This document shows, in pieces, positions 13,915-62,976 of a stretch of 64,000 nt of DNA. The position numbers and the translations under genes were made by a program. The stretch is from a bacterium (GTDB lineage: Bacteria > Patescibacteriota > Microgenomatia > Daviesbacterales > UBA10151): assembly GCA_021786315.1 (NCBI GenBank), contig JAJYNN010000002.1:270997-334996 (forward strand). The letters run 5' to 3'. Each line of letters starts with the position of its first letter. Position 1 is the first letter of the stretch. Under the pieces are notes generated by a model. The model did no database searches. It was not told the origin of the DNA and was given only the letters and a program-made list of their open reading frames with translations.

Positions 13915-14370
13915 ATGGCTATTTCCACAGAAGATATCAAGAAATTACGGGAAGAAACGGGAGCCGGGATTGCGGACTGCAAAGAAGCCTTAACTGAATC
14001 CGATGGTGATATGGCCAAAGCCAAAGAATGGTTAAAGCAAAAAGGTTTTGACCGGGCCGCTAAAAAATCCGAAAGGGAAGTCAAATCCGGAGTTGTCGAA
14101 GTTTATTCCCACGGTGGCAGGGTTGGTGTAGTTGTGGAGGTGCTTTGTGAAACCGACTTTGTGGCCAAAACGGAAGATTTTAAGAACTTAGCTCACGAAA
14201 TTGCCTTGCAAATTGCTTCCATGAACCCGGAAGACAAAGAGGCGCTGCTTGCCCAGGAATATATCCGGGATAACAGCCAAACCATCTCCGACATGATAAA
14301 ATCAGTGGTAGGAAAGCTCGGAGAAAATATCCAAATCGGAAAGTTTTGCCGGGTAGTTCTCGGAGAGTGA
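13915..14370 (+). CDS. tsf: elongation factor Ts (short form)
   Basis: MAISTEDIKKLREETGAGIADCKEAL (UBA-like N-terminus of EF-Ts). ATG at 13915 lies downstream of the rpsB stop. The track ORF starts earlier, at 13879. Confidence 0.9.
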   Translation: MAISTEDIKKLREETGAGIADCKEALTESDGDMAKAKEWLKQKGFDRAAKKSEREVKSGVVEVYSHGGRVGVVVEVLCETDFVAKTEDFKNLAHEIALQIASMNPEDKEALLAQEYIRDNSQTISDMIKSVVGKLGENIQIGKFCRVVLGE

Positions 14371-14419
14371 CTAGATTTAGGATTTAAGATCTTAATTCCT
14401 AAACCCTAATTCTTAATTC

Positions 14420-14974
14420 ATGGATAATGTTTTAATCGAAGCCAATAATAGAATCCAACAAGCATTGGAGCATCTCAAAAAGGATTTGTCTACCATTCGG
14501 GCCGGTCGTGCCAACCCCACTTTAATTGAAGAAGTCCCGGTCAATGTTTATGGTTCCCGGATGAAGCTTGTGGAATTGGGGACCATTTCCGCCCCACAGC
14601 CTTCGCTTTTGACTGTCCAAATTTGGGATGCCAGTGTTGTCCAGGATGTTTTGAAATCCTTACAGGAAGCCAATTTAGGCTTAAATCCTTCTGTCGAAGG
14701 CCAGACTATCAGGCTGCCTATCCCCCCGCTGACTGCCGAAAGAAGGGAAGAGTTTATTAAACTAGCCCATCAAAAAATGGAGGGTGCAAGAATTGAAATC
14801 AGACAAATCCGTCAGGATGTCCGCGAGGAATGGAAGAAAGCTGAAGATGATAAAGAGTTTGGCGAAGATGAGTTTGAGAGAAGAAGTAAACTGCTTCAGG
14901 AGCTGATTGATAAATCTAGTGGGCAGATTGATGAACTAGGTAAGGCAAAAGAGGAAGAGCTATCACAAGTCTAG
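14420..14974 (+). CDS. frr: ribosome recycling factor
   Basis: 184 aa. LSTIRAGRANPTLIEEVPVNVYG, and a C-terminal coiled coil. Confidence 0.93.
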   Translation: MDNVLIEANNRIQQALEHLKKDLSTIRAGRANPTLIEEVPVNVYGSRMKLVELGTISAPQPSLLTVQIWDASVVQDVLKSLQEANLGLNPSVEGQTIRLPIPPLTAERREEFIKLAHQKMEGARIEIRQIRQDVREEWKKAEDDKEFGEDEFERRSKLLQELIDKSSGQIDELGKAKEEELSQV

Positions 14975-15038
14975 ATTTAAGAATGTAGATTTAAGATTTA
15001 AGAATAATTCCTAAATCCTAATTCCTAAATCCTAAATC

Positions 15039-58748: not shown

Positions 58749-59741
58749 ATGTCAGACGGTATTTCCGCAGTTTTATATCTCCACCCTAAGTCTTGGCAGT
58801 TTTTACGGGCGGATAAAATTGATATCTTTCCGGCAAAAGTATCCAATTTAGGGCGTTTATTAAAAAAAGAAAATATTAAAGATAAAAAGATAGCAATCCT
58901 TTTGGATGATTCCTTAATCCATAAAAAAGAGATCTCTTTAGAAGACCCGGAAAAAGCCCAAAATGATTATGAGGATTTTTTAAAAGGGCTCCTGATTGAT
59001 GAAGGCAACTTAGCCAGTGTCAAAGTTTATGAAGGTAATACTTTAAGTGCTTTGGTGGTTGATAAGTCTTTCTATCAAGGGGTTCAGTCCTTAATTAAAG
59101 AGAAGGGCGCGAAAGTTGAGGCTGTTTTACCCGGGTCGTTTTTAGAAATTAAGGAACTCAGTAAGGGAAGCTTAGAGCTGATTATTCAGAATAAGGCTTC
59201 TTTTCATAAGTTTAACTTTATTAAGGAAACAAAAAGCCATCTTTTAACCCCCCCAAAAAATATTTCGGGAAAGAAGACCAAGCCTGACAGGAAAAATTCC
59301 TTGTTTTGGGCGGTTTTAGGATTAATCCTGCTTGTTGGGGGAGGCATGTATGTGAATAAAGACAAGCTTTTTAATTTAAAACAAAATATCCCCCTAAAAA
59401 AACAAGTTGCGCAAGTCCCATCCCAAAATGAATCCAGCCCTTCAGCTGGTACTCAGTTGTCGCTCCGGGAAGGAGTTAAAATCCAGATATTAAACGCTTC
59501 CGGAATAAAGGGATTGGCGGGTAAGGTTCAGGATAAGCTGGAGGCGGTGGGGTATACCAATATCGTGGTGGATAGCTTAAGCCAAGTTCAAAGGGGCAAC
59601 TCGGTTGTTGTTTTTGGCCCGAATATCCAGGCAGATTTAGCTTCAGAAATTAAAGATGCGGTAAAAAAGATTGATAAAAATGTGGAAGAAGTGGCAACCA
59701 AAAGCGCGGAATTTGATGCGGTGGTGACGATCAAAAGATAG
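58749..59741 (+). CDS. membrane protein with a C-terminal LytR_C domain
   Basis: TM LFWAVLGLILLVGGGMYV. C-terminus IQILNASGIKGLAGKVQDKLEAVGY...VVVFG (LytR_C). Confidence 0.6.
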   Translation: MSDGISAVLYLHPKSWQFLRADKIDIFPAKVSNLGRLLKKENIKDKKIAILLDDSLIHKKEISLEDPEKAQNDYEDFLKGLLIDEGNLASVKVYEGNTLSALVVDKSFYQGVQSLIKEKGAKVEAVLPGSFLEIKELSKGSLELIIQNKASFHKFNFIKETKSHLLTPPKNISGKKTKPDRKNSLFWAVLGLILLVGGGMYVNKDKLFNLKQNIPLKKQVAQVPSQNESSPSAGTQLSLREGVKIQILNASGIKGLAGKVQDKLEAVGYTNIVVDSLSQVQRGNSVVVFGPNIQADLASEIKDAVKKIDKNVEEVATKSAEFDAVVTIKR

Positions 59742-59948
59742 GGCTACTGAAAATAGATTTTTGGTTAGGGTATACAGGAGAAAAGCTTCAAAGGGATAAA
59801 ATTAATATTTTCAAGCTTTAAAGCCTGAGATATCAAAGACAAACCTTCTTCGCCTACTTCCTTAAAATTTTCGTTTTGGATCCCGGTTTAACAGGGAAGC
59901 TTGCCCGGTTGCCCGGTTGGGCTTCCCTGCTTGTGGGATGTGGAGGGG

Positions 59949-60371
59949 CTAGGATTGGATGTCTGATCGAGTTATTTCTCTCGACATGCGGGCGACCAAG
60001 ATGGCTTGGCAAATCAGAAGAAATGCCGGCGCAATAATGATCGCTTGACCGATAATGGTTTGACCGAGAGTTACATAAATCAGCCCCACATCAACGCTTG
60101 AAATCACGATGATTGGGATCATCATCAGGGCCGCCGATTTGGGGCGGATGATGAAAGTGCTAAGGACGAGCAGGGCGGCAACCCCGATCATTGTCCTCTG
60201 TGAGAACAATGCGGTCGATGTTCCGTCGATTACTGAGTAACCGATGTACGCCATGATTAAAATGGAGACCACTGTACTAAGCCAGGTTTTTGATCCCTGG
60301 ACTGCGGCCGCGGTGTTAGCCATTGATTGGTTTGATTGCCGACGGTTGCTGATAGCCTGGTCGCTCAACAT
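59949..60371 (-). CDS. cassette gene A: small 4-TM membrane protein
   Basis: 140 aa. SD aggagga and ATG. Preceded by the conserved leader and consensus promoter. Moderately elevated GC. Confidence 0.55.
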   Translation of the reverse strand: MLSDQAISNRRQSNQSMANTAAAVQGSKTWLSTVVSILIMAYIGYSVIDGTSTALFSQRTMIGVAALLVLSTFIIRPKSAALMMIPIIVISSVDVGLIYVTLGQTIIGQAIIIAPAFLLICQAILVARMSREITRSDIQS

Positions 60372-60573
60372 TTAGTTTCCTCCTAAGCCATTTATACGTC
60401 ACGGGCGTTAAAAAATTTCACCCGTAACGGATCCAAAGTTATATATTTTTAAGGTCCGCTCAGCTTCAAGAAGCGAGTGGCCTGTATACCCTGTTAAAGT
60501 TCTCTGTCCCGTCGTGTTTGCCAAAAGCAAAAAATCTACCGCATAACGATAGATCCACAGGAAAGATAGGGTA

Positions 60574-60602
60574 ATTATAATACTATGGGTCTTAAAAATC
60601 AA
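60574..60602 (-). promoter_or_regulatory. consensus sigma70 promoter of cassette A (TTGATT-17-TATAAT on the minus strand)
   Basis: Minus strand reads ttgatttttaagacccatagtattataat. Duplicated at 61761-61789. Confidence 0.6.
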
Positions 60603-60813
60603 GTTTTGGGGGTACAAATTGGGTCAGGGTATACAGACGGGGACTTTGCAAAGGATGCAGTTAATATTTTTCAAGCAAAAGCTTGAGATATCAAAAGCAA
60701 ATTTTGCTTTTTCCTTTGTCTTGGACTATTCCTTGGGATCCCCTCTGGTAGGGAAGCTTGGTCCTGGATTAAATCCAGGATTACGCTTCCCAACCTGGAA
60801 GGGATATTGTGGA

Positions 60814-61596
60814 TCAGCGATCTATCCGATACGCTTCGAAGACCCCAGATTGAGGCGGAAAGAAGTGCTTTTCGCCGGATTTGAAGGTCAGGCCGGTGGC
60901 TTTGTCCCGAAGTGCCCAACCGGGCTTCACGGTGGCGAAGAGTTGGGCTCCCTGAGGGAACTGGATCGAGTGGGTCTCGGGCTTGAACGAGTAGGAAACG
61001 ATGTTTCCGTCGTAGGAAAGCTCTGCCTGCTCGACCGTGCCATTGAACATGGAAGCGACCGATGTGATAGGGTCTTGAGTGCTCCACCAAGAACTGACCA
61101 ACATCCCAAGGGCGATGATAGCGACTACGAGTGCAGCCGTTGCTGCGGCAGCTAGCCACGGTTGGTTTGCTACTTGGTTGGTGGTCCGGGCCTGAGGCCT
61201 GTTGCTCATCTGCCGTGCTATGGCTTGGGTTTGCACCCGAAGCATTTGCGATTCAGCCATGATTAGACCAGTCTCTGCCCTTCTCCTGTCTGCTTCGGCC
61301 TCGATCAACCGGGTTTCAGCCTTTACCTGTGCGGCTTGGGCATCGACCAGCCTGATATTGGCGCTCCGCAGCCTGGTGAGCATACGGGTGCAGTAGATTT
61401 GGGCTCTCCTGAGGGAATCCTCTTCTTCCTGCGGGGAAACGATAGTCTGCTCCCGGGAGGCGCCGGGTTCGGTTGTTGCCGCTACCGGAATCTCCTGGGT
61501 GGCGTTGGGGTCGGTGTTGGTTTCCGTGCCGTCCGTTGCCGGTTCGGTTTCGGATTCCTCCAAGACTCCAGTGCCGTTGTCTCCTGCCATTGTCAC
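60814..61596 (-). CDS. cassette gene B: bitopic membrane protein with an acidic/coiled-coil N-terminus and an extracytoplasmic C-terminal domain
   Basis: 260 aa. SD ggagga and ATG. TM WLAAAATAALVVAIIALGMLV. GC about 58%. Same leader and promoter as cassette A. Confidence 0.55.
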   Translation of the reverse strand: MTMAGDNGTGVLEESETEPATDGTETNTDPNATQEIPVAATTEPGASREQTIVSPQEEEDSLRRAQIYCTRMLTRLRSANIRLVDAQAAQVKAETRLIEAEADRRRAETGLIMAESQMLRVQTQAIARQMSNRPQARTTNQVANQPWLAAAATAALVVAIIALGMLVSSWWSTQDPITSVASMFNGTVEQAELSYDGNIVSYSFKPETHSIQFPQGAQLFATVKPGWALRDKATGLTFKSGEKHFFPPQSGVFEAYRIDR

Positions 61597-61760
61597 TCAT
61601 CCTCCGTAATTAATCCATCTGAACGATACGGGCGTTAAAAATTTCACCCGTAACGGTTCCAAAGTAAATATATATCCAAGACTTACCTACCTTTTAAGGG
61701 GTAGAGTAGTCTGTATACCCTGTTAAAGTGCGTTCTTCCTTAAAGGGAAAAACTTTGCGT

Positions 61761-61789
61761 ATTATAATACTATGGGATCCTAAAGTCAA
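61761..61789 (-). promoter_or_regulatory. consensus sigma70 promoter of cassette B (TTGACT-17-TATAAT on the minus strand)
   Basis: Minus strand reads ttgactttaggatcccatagtattataat. Confidence 0.6.
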
Positions 61790-61866
61790 AAAATTTAGAC
61801 CTATAATTAAGAATCTACAAGAACTACAGGCTTGTTTAGGTGTGAATAAGAGAAAGCCCTATAGGA

Positions 61867-61895
61867 TTGAATTGCACTTGACAGCTTGGTATAAT
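61867..61895 (+). promoter_or_regulatory. sigma70 promoter TTGAAT-17-TATAAT driving the 62.1-63.0 kb small-gene operon
   Basis: ttgaattgcacttgacagcttggtataat, followed by a ~190-nt leader carrying gagcc/ggctc hairpins. Confidence 0.55.
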
Positions 61896-62094
61896 AGATA
61901 GTAACAAAGCGGGTAACCCCAGACATAGGCTGTTTGGTGTGTTGTCCTATTTGCAATTATTTTAACTTTGCACTTTGACAGTTTGTTGGAAAGTATCTAG
62001 GAGCCTGGGCTCTTTTTGGTTATAAACATATCTTGTAGCCGGAAAGAGCCTAAGGCTCATATTTTTTTGGCTAAGAGCCAGAAAGGACGACAGG

Positions 62095-62424
62095 TTGAAA
62101 CTGGGGATGTTGACGGGAAGAGTGAAAGCGTTTAGCAGACAGATGGGACGAGGCCATGCGGTTACCCCAGGGGGGAAGAGAATCATCTTCTATGATGATG
62201 GTCGCAAGGTCTACACCAAAGCAAACGCTGGTCTGAACAACGGTAACGGGATCGAGGTCCATGGTCGTGGCAGATTTGTTGACGATCGTGACCCGCGCAA
62301 GGGCGACACGCTCCTCTTTGAGAGGGTGAAAAGAACCCGCAGTGGTTACAAAGGGCGTTCCTGGATTATCAAGGTAAGGACAGGAAACACCGTAACATGC
62401 TCAATTGCTGATGCAATAGCCTAA
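62095..62424 (+). CDS. hypothetical small basic protein (island gene 1)
   Basis: 109-aa ORF, high GC. The true start is possibly ATG 62107. Confidence 0.45.
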   Translation: MKLGMLTGRVKAFSRQMGRGHAVTPGGKRIIFYDDGRKVYTKANAGLNNGNGIEVHGRGRFVDDRDPRKGDTLLFERVKRTRSGYKGRSWIIKVRTGNTVTCSIADAIA

Positions 62425-62440
62425 ATAAGGAGGCATCAGG

Positions 62441-62674
62441 ATGCGGACAGTTGGTTGCACTCCTCTGGGTCACAAGGTGACGGTGGAATGGACCAAGCGA
62501 GATGGTCGTTGGGGAAATCATGTCTTTGTCTACAACAAGGGCAGGGTTCCTCAAAGAATCCGTCATGCTTCGAACGAAGCGCCAGGGATGGTTGCTCAAG
62601 AGCTGGTAAACGGCAAGAGGGCCTATCCCGAGATTGACGAAACTAATCAAGAAAGATTGGGAGGAAGAGGATGA
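62441..62674 (+). CDS. hypothetical small protein (island gene 2)
   Basis: 77 aa, with an SD aggaggcatcagg before the ATG. Confidence 0.45.
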   Translation: MRTVGCTPLGHKVTVEWTKRDGRWGNHVFVYNKGRVPQRIRHASNEAPGMVAQELVNGKRAYPEIDETNQERLGGRG

Positions 62675-62976
62675 ATGCAAGTCTGGTTTTAGCAGGTAAG
62701 GTTTCCCATTCCAACGGTGGCTCGAAAGTTCTCGCCGGTGCGACTCAATGTGCCGAGGACACGCTCAAGGTGCTTCATAAGATGTGTTGCGACCGGGGGC
62801 CGGTTTTTCCAGGACGAGTTCCTGATTGTCTCCCTGTCGCCAAGAAGTTAGGCATCAAGCAGGAGAATGTGATTATTGCAGGTCTTTATGAGCTGCATGA
62901 TCGCGGCTTAGTCCGGTATCTGGGAGGCGATCGGTTTGTCCCCTTTGGAGAGAAAATCCTTTCTTACGATATCTAA
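62671..62976 (+). CDS. hypothetical small protein (island gene 3), possible winged-helix C-terminus
   Basis: 101 aa. Overlaps the upstream stop (translational coupling). Confidence 0.45.
   Translation: MNASLVLAGKVSHSNGGSKVLAGATQCAEDTLKVLHKMCCDRGPVFPGRVPDCLPVAKKLGIKQENVIIAGLYELHDRGLVRYLGGDRFVPFGEKILSYDI

Follow-up and report, generated by a model that had tools for sequence, protein, structure and literature searches.

A conserved promoter, leader and 3' scaffold with complementary end words, duplicated around two unrelated genes of a Patescibacteriota genome

Stabilising leaders of the ompA type place a stem no more than a few nucleotides from the 5' end. In hok mRNA, the extreme 5' and 3' ends pair (tac/fbi) and keep the full-length mRNA compact, and the encoded toxin of ~50 aa is controlled by an antisense RNA. 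The hbs mRNA of Bacillus subtilis is abundant and stable. A 14-bp interaction between its 5' and 3' UTRs is reported to modulate RNase Y cleavage, and hence stability (Braun, Durand and Condon 2017, PMC5737220). In Staphylococcus aureus icaR, the 3'-UTR motif UCCCCUG masks the Shine-Dalgarno sequence and represses translation, and the creation of an RNase III substrate by UTR pairing also has a published precedent (Ruiz de los Mozos et al. 2013, PMC3868564).

The locus described here lies in a 64-kb stretch of DNA from a bacterium of the Patescibacteriota, the whole of which is called the window. As in mRNAs of the hbs and icaR kind, for which a complementary stretch of at least ~7-14 nt is expected, the predicted 5' and 3' UTRs of the same gene are complementary here, and the complementarity is conserved among orthologues, in all four cassettes from three genomes. 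The likeness to hbs consists of a structured 5' UTR together with a long-range 5'/3'-UTR duplex of 12-14 bp in the same mRNA, both of them predicted here, and of a gene that appears to be strongly expressed. In contrast, there is no sequence or structural homology to hbs, the partner words are conserved across distant genomes beside a 5'-terminal stem, and the UTR pair has been copied onto a second, unrelated gene. Whereas the icaR motif masks the Shine-Dalgarno sequence, the 5' word here lies clear of it, ~110-120 nt upstream. Unlike hok, the proteins are 140 and 258 aa long and no antisense gene is evident.

Two tandem units in the window

An earlier note on this DNA had described two tandem gene units with identical regulatory scaffolds, near-consensus promoters and unrelated cargo, and every feature that it listed was found in place when the sequence was inspected again. 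Genes A and B adjoin on the minus strand; their promoters, leaders and 3' modules are homologous, whereas their coding regions are not (BLASTP E = 36; tblastn, tblastx and blastn without significant match). The promoters are as near to consensus as claimed (Table 1), and the -10 boxes predict transcription starts at ~61754 for B and ~60567 for A. The scaffolds do share blocks but are not identical: they form a mosaic in which blocks of 90-100% identity alternate with spacers that, like the coding regions, are unalignable, and leader B is without a hairpin of ~40 nt that is present in leader A. In the leader, the block ACTTTAACAGGGTATACAG is identical at 19/19 positions (60500-60482 in A, 61729-61711 in B) and the block ACTTTGGAwCCGTTACGGGTGAAATTTTT(T)AACGCCCGT at 37/39 (60439-60401 in A, 61665-61628 in B). 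The shared 3' blocks are the hairpin GGGAAGC...GCTTCCC, the palindromic module TTTGATATCTCArGC..CTTGAAAATATTAA and the word CTGTATACCCT(G).

Table 1. Elements of units B and A, listed from 5' to 3' on the minus strand (positions in the window)
Feature	Position	Strand	Sequence or remark
Promoter B	61761..61789	-	TTGACT, 17-nt spacer with CCCATAGTA, TATAAT; 11/12 against the consensus
P1 of B	61732..61753	-	Stem-loop at predicted 5' end, GUUUUUCC/GGAAGAAC; apical hairpin HP1 deleted here
Box and 5' inverted-repeat word of B	61709..61729	-	ACTTTAACAGGGTATACAGAC; final 14 nt complementary to 60625-60638
Variable hairpin HPv of leader B	61681..61710	-	
ACTTTGG block and HP2 of B	61624..61665	-	ACGGGTG-AAATTTTTAA-CGCCCGT; ~30-70 nt 5' of the start codon
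Shine-Dalgarno of B	61600..61606	-	GGAGGA
Gene B	60814..61590	-	258 aa from ATG 61590 (260 aa from GTG 61596)
HP3 of B	60747..60795	-	Hairpin directly 3' of the stop, GGTTGGGAAGC...GCTTCCCTACC; apical part variable
Palindromic 3' module of B	60661..60695	-	TTTGATATCTCAAGCTTTTGCTTGAAAAATATTAA
3' inverted-repeat word of B	60625..60638	-	GTCTGTATACCCTG
Promoter A	60574..60602	-	TTGATT, 17-nt spacer with CCCATAGTA, TATAAT; 10/12 against the consensus
P1 and HP1 of A	60501..60566	-	Predicted 5'-end stem UCUUUCCUGU/ACGGGACAGAGA around HP1; sense -22.9, antisense -10.4 kcal/mol
Box and 5' inverted-repeat word of A	60481..60500	-	ACTTTAACAGGGTATACAGG
Variable hairpin HPv of leader A	60456..60480	-	
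ACTTTGG block and HP2 of A	60397..60439	-	
Shine-Dalgarno of A	60378..60384	-	AGGAGGA
Gene A	59949..60371	-	140 aa; predicted all-helical membrane protein, orphan
HP3 of A	59890..59931	-	AGCAGGGAAGC...GCTTCCCTGTT
Palindromic 3' module of A	59802..59837	-	
3' inverted-repeat word of A	59767..59778	-	CCTGTATACCCT

The repeat word is rare in the window. The 12-mer CAGGGTATACAG, with at most one mismatch, occurs at four sites in 64 kb against 0.11 expected, a count reached in 0/100 shuffles, and the four sites are exactly the 5' and 3' words of A and B. The spacer motif CCCATAGTA has exact matches in the window only at the two promoters, and no further copy of any scaffold module was found elsewhere in the 64 kb. 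The earlier note had reasoned that repeats confined to this locus, together with homologous proteins, would indicate a simple tandem gene duplication; within the window the repeats are indeed confined to it, but the two proteins are not homologous. A 12-nt inverted repeat that flanks a gene is not rare in itself, and 5/62 other window genes are likewise flanked, within 250 nt on each side, by one that is 12 nt or longer. The significance of the repeat therefore derives from the recurrence of the same word and from its conservation in other genomes.

B is a predicted single-pass membrane protein; besides a disordered N-terminus and a long helix, it has one transmembrane helix and, at the C-terminus, a conserved beta domain of ~80 aa. 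Structure predictions have low confidence for both proteins (pLDDT 64 for A and 61 for B); a PDB fold search gave nothing below E = 0.03 and a PDB profile search gave nothing. No homologue of A was found; A, B and the neighbouring LytR_C protein each retrieved only themselves in word-indexed protein searches, and B and orf109 had no match in viral look-ups. The neighbours in the window are PurA, a GH18 glycosyl hydrolase, LytR_C and DUF167. The convergent LytR_C gene ends at 59741, past the 3' word of A, and conservation stops ~10 nt beyond that word. GC3, the G+C fraction of third codon positions, is 0.60 in gene A and 0.51-0.66 in the B-family genes of all three genomes, compared to 0.25-0.46 in their neighbours. 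Together with the near-consensus promoters, the raised GC3 may be read as a sign of high expression. Three adjacent small ORFs share with A and B an atypical composition.

Conservation and RNA helices in three genomes

Remote homologues of B, P0004 and P0005, were recovered from two other CPR-like genomes by a full HMMER scan with B and not by word-indexed searches; overall, B is 35% and 28% identical to them. Both loci, L016 and L021, have the same ordered scaffold elements around a single B-family gene, and the comparative sample comprises four cassettes from three genomes. The elements common to the cassettes are the promoter spacer CCCATAGTA (4/4), a 5'-end stem-loop that begins at +2 of the predicted transcript (4/4), the box ACUUUwACA(r)GGGUAUACA, a hairpin with a conserved loop before the Shine-Dalgarno sequence, a hairpin after the stop codon and the 3'-end word CUGUAUACCCU. 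Sequence comparison shows far more conservation of the scaffold than is expected under neutrality. The window and L016 are syntenic (DUF167 ... B ... PurA, baeRF, DsbA) even though PurA of the two genomes is only 59% identical, which points to vertical inheritance of the cassette. In L021, the cassette has other genes around it, the small ORFs on its upstream side are not homologous to those of the window, and the palindromic 3' module is missing. The cassettes of L016 and L021 are single-copy, keep both words and are followed by convergent genes instead of a second unit. Recent horizontal transfer of the window locus is an unlikely source of the two, given how far their coding sequences have diverged.

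Wider searches added no further cassette. The exact 19-mer ACTTTAACAGGGTATACAG has 0 matches in 185,579 representative genomes, and its three matches in JGI metagenomes are unrelated chance hits, one of them in a copia-like retrotransposon. Leader patterns have 0 matches in IMG/VR, and a PurA probe of the representative genomes found distant relatives only, with a Roizmanbacteria genome the best at 48% identity. Exact-protein look-ups with the window proteins found a single identical 4.3-kb contig and no strain variation, and a literature search for the repeat word returned PCR primers only. At the gathering thresholds, Rfam has 0 matches in the window, and those with E <=5 are chance matches to snoRNA and lncRNA models.

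Several of the conserved elements carry the marks of RNA. In HP2, 5/11 pairs are changed on both sides among the four cassettes, and the loop keeps its sequence. The hairpin's covariation score of 0.576 compares with 0.314 in shuffles, of which 3/500 do as well, and falls to 0.17 or less when the partner is slid. In HP3, 4/11 pairs are compensatory, with a score of 0.47 against 0.22 in shuffles (3/500). P1/HP1 contains 4-5 G-U pairs in each of the three HP1-bearing cassettes and one in window B, where HP1 is absent. Where HP1 is present, the folding energy of this structure is -21 to -23 kcal/mol for the sense strand but -5 to -12 kcal/mol for the antisense strand, and HP2 is more stable on the sense strand in 3/4 cassettes. 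The G-U pairs of the 5' helices, and their stability on the sense strand only, mark these helices as RNA elements under strong selection.

Some candidate functions were rejected. HP1 was considered as a transcription attenuator, but the T-rich run that follows it is present in window A alone. RNAalifold paired the CU-rich strand at the 5' terminus with the Shine-Dalgarno sequence; this anti-Shine-Dalgarno reading was dropped because single-sequence folds place that strand in the local P1 stem in 4/4 leaders. Resemblances to CsrA sites, LexA boxes and attC did not fit on inspection by eye.

The 5' and 3' words are complementary in 4/4 cassettes: over 14/14 nt in window B, over 12 nt plus GCTTC/GAAGC (5 nt) in window A, over 12 bp with a 1-nt bulge in L016 and over 11 bp plus flanks in L021. 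In minimum-energy folds of the whole predicted mRNAs, the words are paired, with probability mostly >0.9. A flanking pair covaries, being A-U in window B and L021 and G-C in window A and L016. Across the duplex, 9/14 pairs are invariant and two are doubly changed, a covariation that is not significant since 63/500 shuffles equal it. The single peripheral mismatch, in L021, reads A-C in the sense orientation and would be G-U on the antisense strand. The complementarity is carried mostly by conservation of both words, which DNA-level models would likewise predict. When whole UTRs were compared with shuffles by RNA duplex folding, unconstrained duplexes dominated. A 1-nt indel separates the two copies in L016, GGGTTATACAGG on the 5' side and CCTGTATACCC on the 3' side. 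All five assemblies agree on the 5' copy, and the 3' copy was fully checked in four; the fifth L016-type assembly (L020) differs only elsewhere in the 3' flank. Such an insertion is tolerable as a bulge in an RNA duplex, but it changes the spacing of a DNA site and is not expected of a crossover site.

A probable closed-loop mRNA and the competing explanations

Probably, the scaffold yields a structured mRNA at a high level, with pairing between the words in its two UTRs; in the window genome, this scaffold has been duplicated onto gene A. The earlier note had suggested in passing that the inverted repeats could pair the ends of each mRNA, and this is the reading favoured here, in view of the complementarity in every cassette and of the predicted folds. 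From these elements, we infer the transcription start, the 3' end, pairing in vivo and its effect as follows. The scaffold would be the expression architecture of the fast-evolving membrane-protein family B in a CPR lineage and would act mainly as RNA. Transcription would start from the sigma-70-type promoter with its conserved spacer, and the first nucleotides would fold into the 5'-terminal stem-loop P1 with HP1 at its tip. The conserved box would follow as a single strand, and then the optional HPv and HP2, with its invariant loop AAAUyUUU(U)AA, would precede the Shine-Dalgarno sequence. Past the stop codon, the strong hairpin HP3 and an optional palindromic hairpin would lead to the 3' word, which would pair with the 5' box over 11-14 bp to form an mRNA panhandle beside the 5' stem-loop. 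Both ends may thereby be shielded from RNases, or an RNase III/Y processing site may be set, and stability or translation would be coupled to completion of the transcript, by analogy with the 14-bp interaction in hbs. In the window genome, the whole unit from promoter to 3' word was tandemly duplicated, and one copy now drives the unrelated four-helix membrane protein A.

The position of HP3 matters to this closed-loop reading, since the 3' word lies downstream of it and would be outside the mRNA if HP3 terminates transcription. No canonical sense-strand terminator was found between the stop codon and the 3' word. The stability of HP3 is equal on both strands, and in L021 it is a good terminator for the convergent gene only. 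A sense-strand U-tract after HP3 is absent in 4/4 cassettes, an observation against termination there.

Alternatively, the words may act as RNA without closing their own mRNA, which we regard as unlikely: the 3' word of a 3'-UTR-derived or read-through RNA would pair in trans or with the next unit, or the box would form part of a local switch. The four words are interchangeable in sequence, and the 3' word of B is complementary also to the 5' word of A, a perfect 12-bp repeat across promoter A at a distance of 131 nt, so that the pairing partners in a read-through RNA are ambiguous. The two would form a hairpin with a 131-nt loop around promoter A; RNase III processing sites or cross-regulation between A and B would be the outcome of such pairing. 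Furthermore, the palindromic 3' module weakly matches a sense promoter (TTGATA-17/18-rAAAAT, 9/12), from which a short RNA led by the 3' word would start, and the T-run of HP1 occurs in the tandem copy only, as if to end read-through transcripts from upstream. A local switch would involve pairing of the box with the ACUUUGG block, and the leader folded alone does pair the 5' word with the AUAUAACUUUGG block. However, the single-copy cassettes retain both words without a second unit, the palindromic module is dispensed with in L021, and complementarity within a cassette (14 nt; 12 + 5 nt) exceeds that of the cross-promoter pair, which is exactly 12 nt.

It is no more probable that the words are double-stranded DNA sites to which one protein binds, in opposite orientation, on either side of the gene, as an operator pair by which the transcription unit is looped or bracketed. 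Near-invariance of both words in three genomes suits such sites, as do the palindromic GTATAC core of the word, the ~2.6-fold enrichment of palindromic hexamers in the modules and the conserved spacer CCCATAGTA, which a plain sigma-70 promoter does not need and which could be a third contact. On the other hand, the 5' site of L016 has an extra T in its core (GGGTTATAC against GGGTATAC), which alters the half-site spacing, the flanks covary toward complementarity and not toward identity with a consensus, and the conserved elements around the words are demonstrably helices of sense-strand RNA. Beside the cassette, there is no regulator gene common to all three genomes, and an operator 3' of a gene of 0.4-0.8 kb would be unusual.

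A bolder proposal, and a distinctly improbable one, is that the unit from promoter to 3' word is a portable 'closed-loop mRNA chassis' that would be copied onto, or would capture, unrelated ORFs in CPR genomes and would be moved to other chromosomal contexts via the complementary words, by routes such as an as yet unrecognised recombinase or an RNA-templated one. If true, this would be a new kind of gene-cassette system and not the UTRs of one gene.

The earlier note had likened the locus to integron cassettes, phage morons or a cassette-exchange locus, with the repeats as the bounds of each cassette. The chance that the repeats are site-specific crossover sites, whether of an invertible switch or shufflon or of an integron-like or other cassette exchange, is very small. 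The four copies of the word alternate in orientation and the two genes carried are non-homologous; a promoter (60482-60636) or a gene lies between short perfect inverted repeats, as invertons (fimS-type, Bacteroides-type) and shufflons require, and the pair around promoter A has inverton-like geometry. Tandem units with unrelated coding regions and similar flanks, including an imperfect hairpin 3' of the gene, are likewise reminiscent of integron cassettes, and the atypical composition and the changed neighbourhood in L021 would suit mobility. Nevertheless, among the ORFs of the 64-kb window that are 120 aa or longer, none has a domain of an integrase (IntI included), a tyrosine or serine recombinase or a transposase, and no recombinase is annotated in the L016 or L021 loci. 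There is no attI and no attC-like R''/R' pair (cores RYYYAAC / GTTRRRY), as the arms of the 3' hairpin are GGGAAGC/GCTTCCC; a GTTAAAC after this hairpin occurs in window A only. Each unit has its own sigma-70 promoter (10-11/12), whereas integron cassettes are normally promoterless. All assembled contigs show a single orientation (six window-type, seven L016-type and two L021-type), and none is broken at a repeat. The repeats are not the boundaries of the unit, since what is conserved and duplicated begins at the promoter, outside the inner repeat. They are imperfect in L016 and set among G-U-bearing helices that are stable on the sense strand only. The same scaffold surrounds a single, vertically inherited orthologue elsewhere, in one genome at the syntenic position, and its motif is missing from the representative genomes.

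The comparison with phage morons fares no better. No PHROG match is significant (best E = 0.011), and blastn of the 2.1-kb region against phages found no match. The unit does have its own promoter/terminator and an atypical composition, as a moron has, but B orthologues show an equal bias in their own genomes. A MITE or Correia-like element is not indicated either, since the modules are confined to this locus within the 64-kb window and to the B-family gene in the related loci, target-site duplications are lacking and conservation passes the repeats. Finally, a neutral relic, in which one coding region decayed or was replaced after a tandem duplication and the flanks have no function, accords with the twofold order of promoter, leader, gene and 3' module and with the raised GC3 common to A and B, but it is scarcely credible, being already contradicted by the conservation across genomes, with blocks of 90-100% identity between unalignable regions that persist where PurA is only 59% identical and helices maintained by compensatory changes.

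Significance for gene expression in CPR genomes

Documented bacterial mRNAs with paired 5' and 3' UTRs appear to be few, and the worked examples, hbs and icaR, each concern a single species and were, as their reports present them, established by experiment. The present locus adds a case in which comparative sequence supports 5'/3'-UTR pairing. The finding opens no long-standing question, and the organisms that carry the scaffold are uncultured. The words and hairpins survive between genomes whose PurA proteins are 59% identical, and protein similarity of B is almost lost; the non-coding parts are thus more constrained than the gene. From the window locus it is also clear that an unrelated gene can take on such a UTR pair in one piece. 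This bears on the way in which new genes gain expression signals in CPR bacteria, whose genomes are tiny and evolve fast, and it offers a natural template for a modular expression scaffold.

Layout of the two cassettes in the window

The window represents an unremarkable stretch of chromosome from a CPR-like bacterium with a small genome and carries rpsB-tsf-frr, topA, pyrG, proS, cysS, tig, purA, and a VirD4-like ATPase. The closest representative genome by PurA belongs to Roizmanbacteria, at 48% identity, and neither tRNA nor Rfam matches were found in the window. The membrane-protein genes A and B are bounded on one side by a LytR_C gene that converges on them (stop 59741) and on the other by three small ORFs that diverge from them. 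A word-indexed search of 5.8 billion proteins returned no relatives of A, B, or the LytR_C protein, and the single other contig that carries these three is identical to the window.

Each gene lies in a cassette of promoter, leader, and 3' modules. From 5' to 3', the leader comprises a stem (P1) with hairpin HP1 at its tip, a box that includes the 5' copy of a 12-nt inverted repeat (the word), hairpins HPv and HP2, and the Shine-Dalgarno sequence; hairpin HP3, a palindromic module, and the 3' word follow the stop codon. Every element listed in the earlier note was located where that note had placed it. The scaffolds, which the note had described as identical, are a mosaic: the shared blocks are 90-100% identical, the spacers between them are unalignable, and a hairpin of ~40 nt in leader A is absent from leader B. 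The cargo genes are indeed unrelated, with no A/B similarity in any frame.

Features of the two window cassettes and their counterparts at the genes of the B homologues P0004 and P0005
Feature	Position in window	Strand	Window A and B	P0004 and P0005 genes
Gene A	59949-60371	minus	tandem with gene B	
Gene B	60814-61590 (61596 if GTG start)	minus	tandem with gene A	
Promoter	60602-60574 (A), 61789-61761 (B)	minus	TTGAyT-17-TATAAT; scores 10/12 (A), 11/12 (B)	TTGACA-N8-CCCATAGTAA-TrTAAT, then 5'-end hairpin
19-nt block	both leaders		ACTTTAACAGGGTATACAG, identical in A and B	
Box				GGGAyAAGAGnACTTTTACA(r)GG(k)TATACA, then ACTTwGG
Leader hairpin			ACGGGTG-AAATTTTT(T)AA-CGCCCGT, in a 39-nt block 37/39 identical between A and B	loop AAATCTTT(T)AA, then Shine-Dalgarno
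Shine-Dalgarno	both leaders		GGAGGA	
3' side, after stop			GGGAAGC...GCTTCCC hairpin, then palindrome TTTGATATCTCArGC...CTTGAAAATATTAA, then CTGTATACCCT(G)	(C)AGG(G)AAG...CTTCC(C)TG hairpin, then CTGTATACCCT

A lone short inverted repeat around a gene is a poor signal by itself in this genome. Inverted repeats of at least 12 nt lie within 250 nt of both ends of 5 of the 62 other genes of the window, and the window has 45 perfect 12-mer inverted-repeat pairs with a spacing of 300-3000 nt, compared with ~12 in shuffles. The case for the A and B repeats rests on the recurrence of the same word, which has 4 sites in 64 kb against 0.11 expected (one mismatch allowed), and on further, cross-genome evidence. 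No further copy of any cassette module occurs elsewhere in the 64-kb window.

Several other features of the window were recorded. Around frr (14420-14974), an AT-rich hairpin repeat, GATTTAGGATTTAAGA...TTCCTAAAyCCTAA, is copied into both intergenic spacers (14370-14415 and 14972-15038), so that a perfect inverted repeat of 13 nt spans the gene; near-matches to the motif number 8 window-wide vs 1.4 expected. Palindromic hexamers (GTATAC, GATATC, GGATCC, AAGCTT, AAATTT) reach 41 per kb in the non-coding modules of 59742-61830, compared with 15.5 per kb window-wide. In leader A, HP1 is followed by T6GCT4 (60523-60556, minus strand), a terminator-like arrangement whose T-run is absent from the orthologous hairpins of the P0004 locus L016 and the P0005 locus L021, and which may stop read-through arriving from gene B in the tandem array. 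The small ORFs divergent from B (62095-62976, plus strand; 109, 77, and 101 aa) have GC raised to 0.50-0.52, and their sole Pfam or PHROG match is to DUF3850, below threshold; they and genes A and B make up ~3.3 kb of atypical composition between LytR_C and DUF167. Ahead of the first of them, orf109 (62095-62424), for which no viral relatives were found, the span 61867-62094 holds a plus-strand promoter-like site, TTGAAT-17-TGgTATAAT (extended -10), with a leader of ~200 nt. Two terminator-like hairpins in this leader (61999-62014 and 62046-62058) are followed by T-runs. The leader may represent an attenuator or be structured in some other way.

The B family and its scaffold in other genomes

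A full HMMER scan of B against 1.84 billion representative proteins found three relatives. P0004 (256 aa) and P0005 (266 aa), with 35% and 28% overall identity to B, share its architecture, in which the N-terminus varies and a C-terminal domain of ~80 aa is conserved, alongside an AQRDY motif, a Pro/Ala linker, and one transmembrane helix. The third, P0006, is a eukaryotic protein of fibronectin type III repeats whose match is confined to the C-terminal domain. P0004 occurs in five assemblies (loci L016-L020), in a region syntenic with the window (DUF167 ... B-homologue ... PurA, baeRF, DsbA) where PurA is 59% and DUF167 82% identical. P0005 occurs in L021 and L022 and has a different neighbourhood. 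The genomes of both homologues hold one cassette each and no gene A.

A common scaffold surrounds the P0004 and P0005 genes, in a minimal version at L021 that is devoid of the variable hairpin and the palindromic 3' module. When profiles built from the 5' and from the 3' modules were searched with nhmmer, matches were limited to these and the two window cassettes in all sequence searched (the window and the related loci). Neutral non-coding DNA is expected to be unrecognisable at 59% PurA identity, and the scaffold blocks are better conserved than the B protein. Because it surrounds the genes of both homologues, the scaffold belongs to the B family and is old. In L020 (2371-2563, vs L016 10772-10964), a strain variant of the L016 cassette has five substitutions in 1.5 kb, four of them in apical HP3 (C10795A, TCC10811-13GAA), with no change to the arms of the stem, to the encoded protein, or to either word.

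The G+C content at third codon positions (GC3) of the B-family genes is 0.51-0.66, compared with 0.25-0.46 for neighbouring genes, in each of the three genomes (window 60814-61590; L016 10001-10771; L021 5362-6162), and that of gene A is 0.60. The recurrence of this bias in three genomes suggests selection on codon use or mRNA and not recent transfer.

Helices and proposed end pairing of the predicted mRNA

HP2 keeps its loop and varies its stem (ACGGGTG/CGCCCGT, ATGGGAG/CTCTCAT, ACAGGAG/CTCCTGT), both sides being changed in 5 of 11 pairs. Its covariation score is 0.576 vs 0.314 in shuffles (3/500), and slid partners reach at most 0.17. In HP3, whose arms were aligned manually, four pairs are compensatory and the score is 0.47 vs 0.22 (3/500). 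The 5' helices are specific to one strand: where HP1 is present (three cassettes), P1/HP1 contains 4-5 G-U pairs, and its folding energy is -21 to -23 kcal/mol for the sense strand vs -5 to -12 kcal/mol for the antisense strand. HP2 is more stable on the sense strand in three of the four cassettes (window A, window B, L016, and L021). HP3 is strand-symmetric and in L021 is also a good terminator for the convergent gene. If the transcript start is predicted from the -10 box, P1 starts at +2 in all four, which is the stem position of classical 5' stabilisers.

The earlier note had also suggested that the inverted repeats pair the mRNA ends, and this is the best-supported reading, though unproven. 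All four cassettes show complementarity between the 3' word and the 3' half of the box, (C)A(r)GGGUAUACA(r): over 14/14 positions in window B, 12 nt plus a second 5-bp stretch in window A, 12 bp with a 1-nt bulge in L016, and 11 bp plus flanks in L021. In folds of the whole predicted mRNAs (811-1151 nt), the words are paired in the minimum-energy structure, mostly with probability >0.9. The core-adjacent pair covaries (window B and L021 have A-U, window A and L016 have G-C), but covariation of the word duplex is not significant (63/500), 9 of its 14 pairs being invariant. The weak point of the end-pairing reading is whether the 3' word lies on the transcript. HP3 is upstream of it, although all cassettes lack a sense-strand U-tract at HP3. 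Conservation in the sense orientation reaches the 3' word and ends ~10 nt beyond.

That the words serve as a DNA site, or as a site of crossover, is less probable. In L016 the core of the 5' word is longer by one T, this 5' copy being identical in five of five assemblies, and the conserved, duplicated unit starts at the promoter, outside the inner repeat; both points favour RNA pairing. Since the unit starts there, the repeats are not its boundaries, and the analogy to integron cassettes, phage morons, or a cassette-exchange locus is not supported, given this and the lack of integrase, recombinase, or transposase domains in window ORFs of at least 120 aa and of phage matches for the window.

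By eye in the alignment, the invariant HP2 loop AAAUyUUU(U)AA (60401-60424) is complementary to a conserved RRUUUG block that immediately precedes the palindromic 3' module (59838-59850), and likewise at the equivalent sites; one position differs on both sides (C-G in L016, U-A in window B), and the block is absent in L021. It could be a second 5'-3' contact, or a chance match of AU-rich sequences.

With near-consensus promoters and the raised GC3 of the B genes, the A and B mRNAs look strongly transcribed, and they look heavily structured. The 5'-terminal stem, the hairpin near the Shine-Dalgarno sequence, and the 3' hairpins would stabilise them, and the word duplex beside the 5' stem would close them as panhandles. 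In B. subtilis hbs mRNA, a 14-bp 5'/3'-UTR interaction limits RNase Y cleavage (PMC5737220); this is the nearest precedent for the proposed panhandle. Such duplexes can also serve as RNase III substrates, as in icaR (PMC3868564).

Origin of the tandem pair

In the window genome the whole unit is present a second time, in tandem, and there encloses the gene of the orphan 4-helix protein A. The L016 flanks are closer to those of A than to those of B (3' module identity 66% vs 60%), and L016 and window A have in common HP1, the CGGGCAACCG apex of HP3, and CCTGTATACCCTAACC. Because of this resemblance, the duplication is not recent and the flanks of B have drifted faster. The A coding region sits exactly between the Shine-Dalgarno sequence and HP3, and no residual similarity to B is detectable; it could be a replacement, or a new reading frame born in a decayed copy of B. 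The cassettes add a new example, backed by comparative sequence, to a known kind of bacterial mRNA architecture that has seldom been documented; unusually, the architecture has here been copied onto an unrelated gene.
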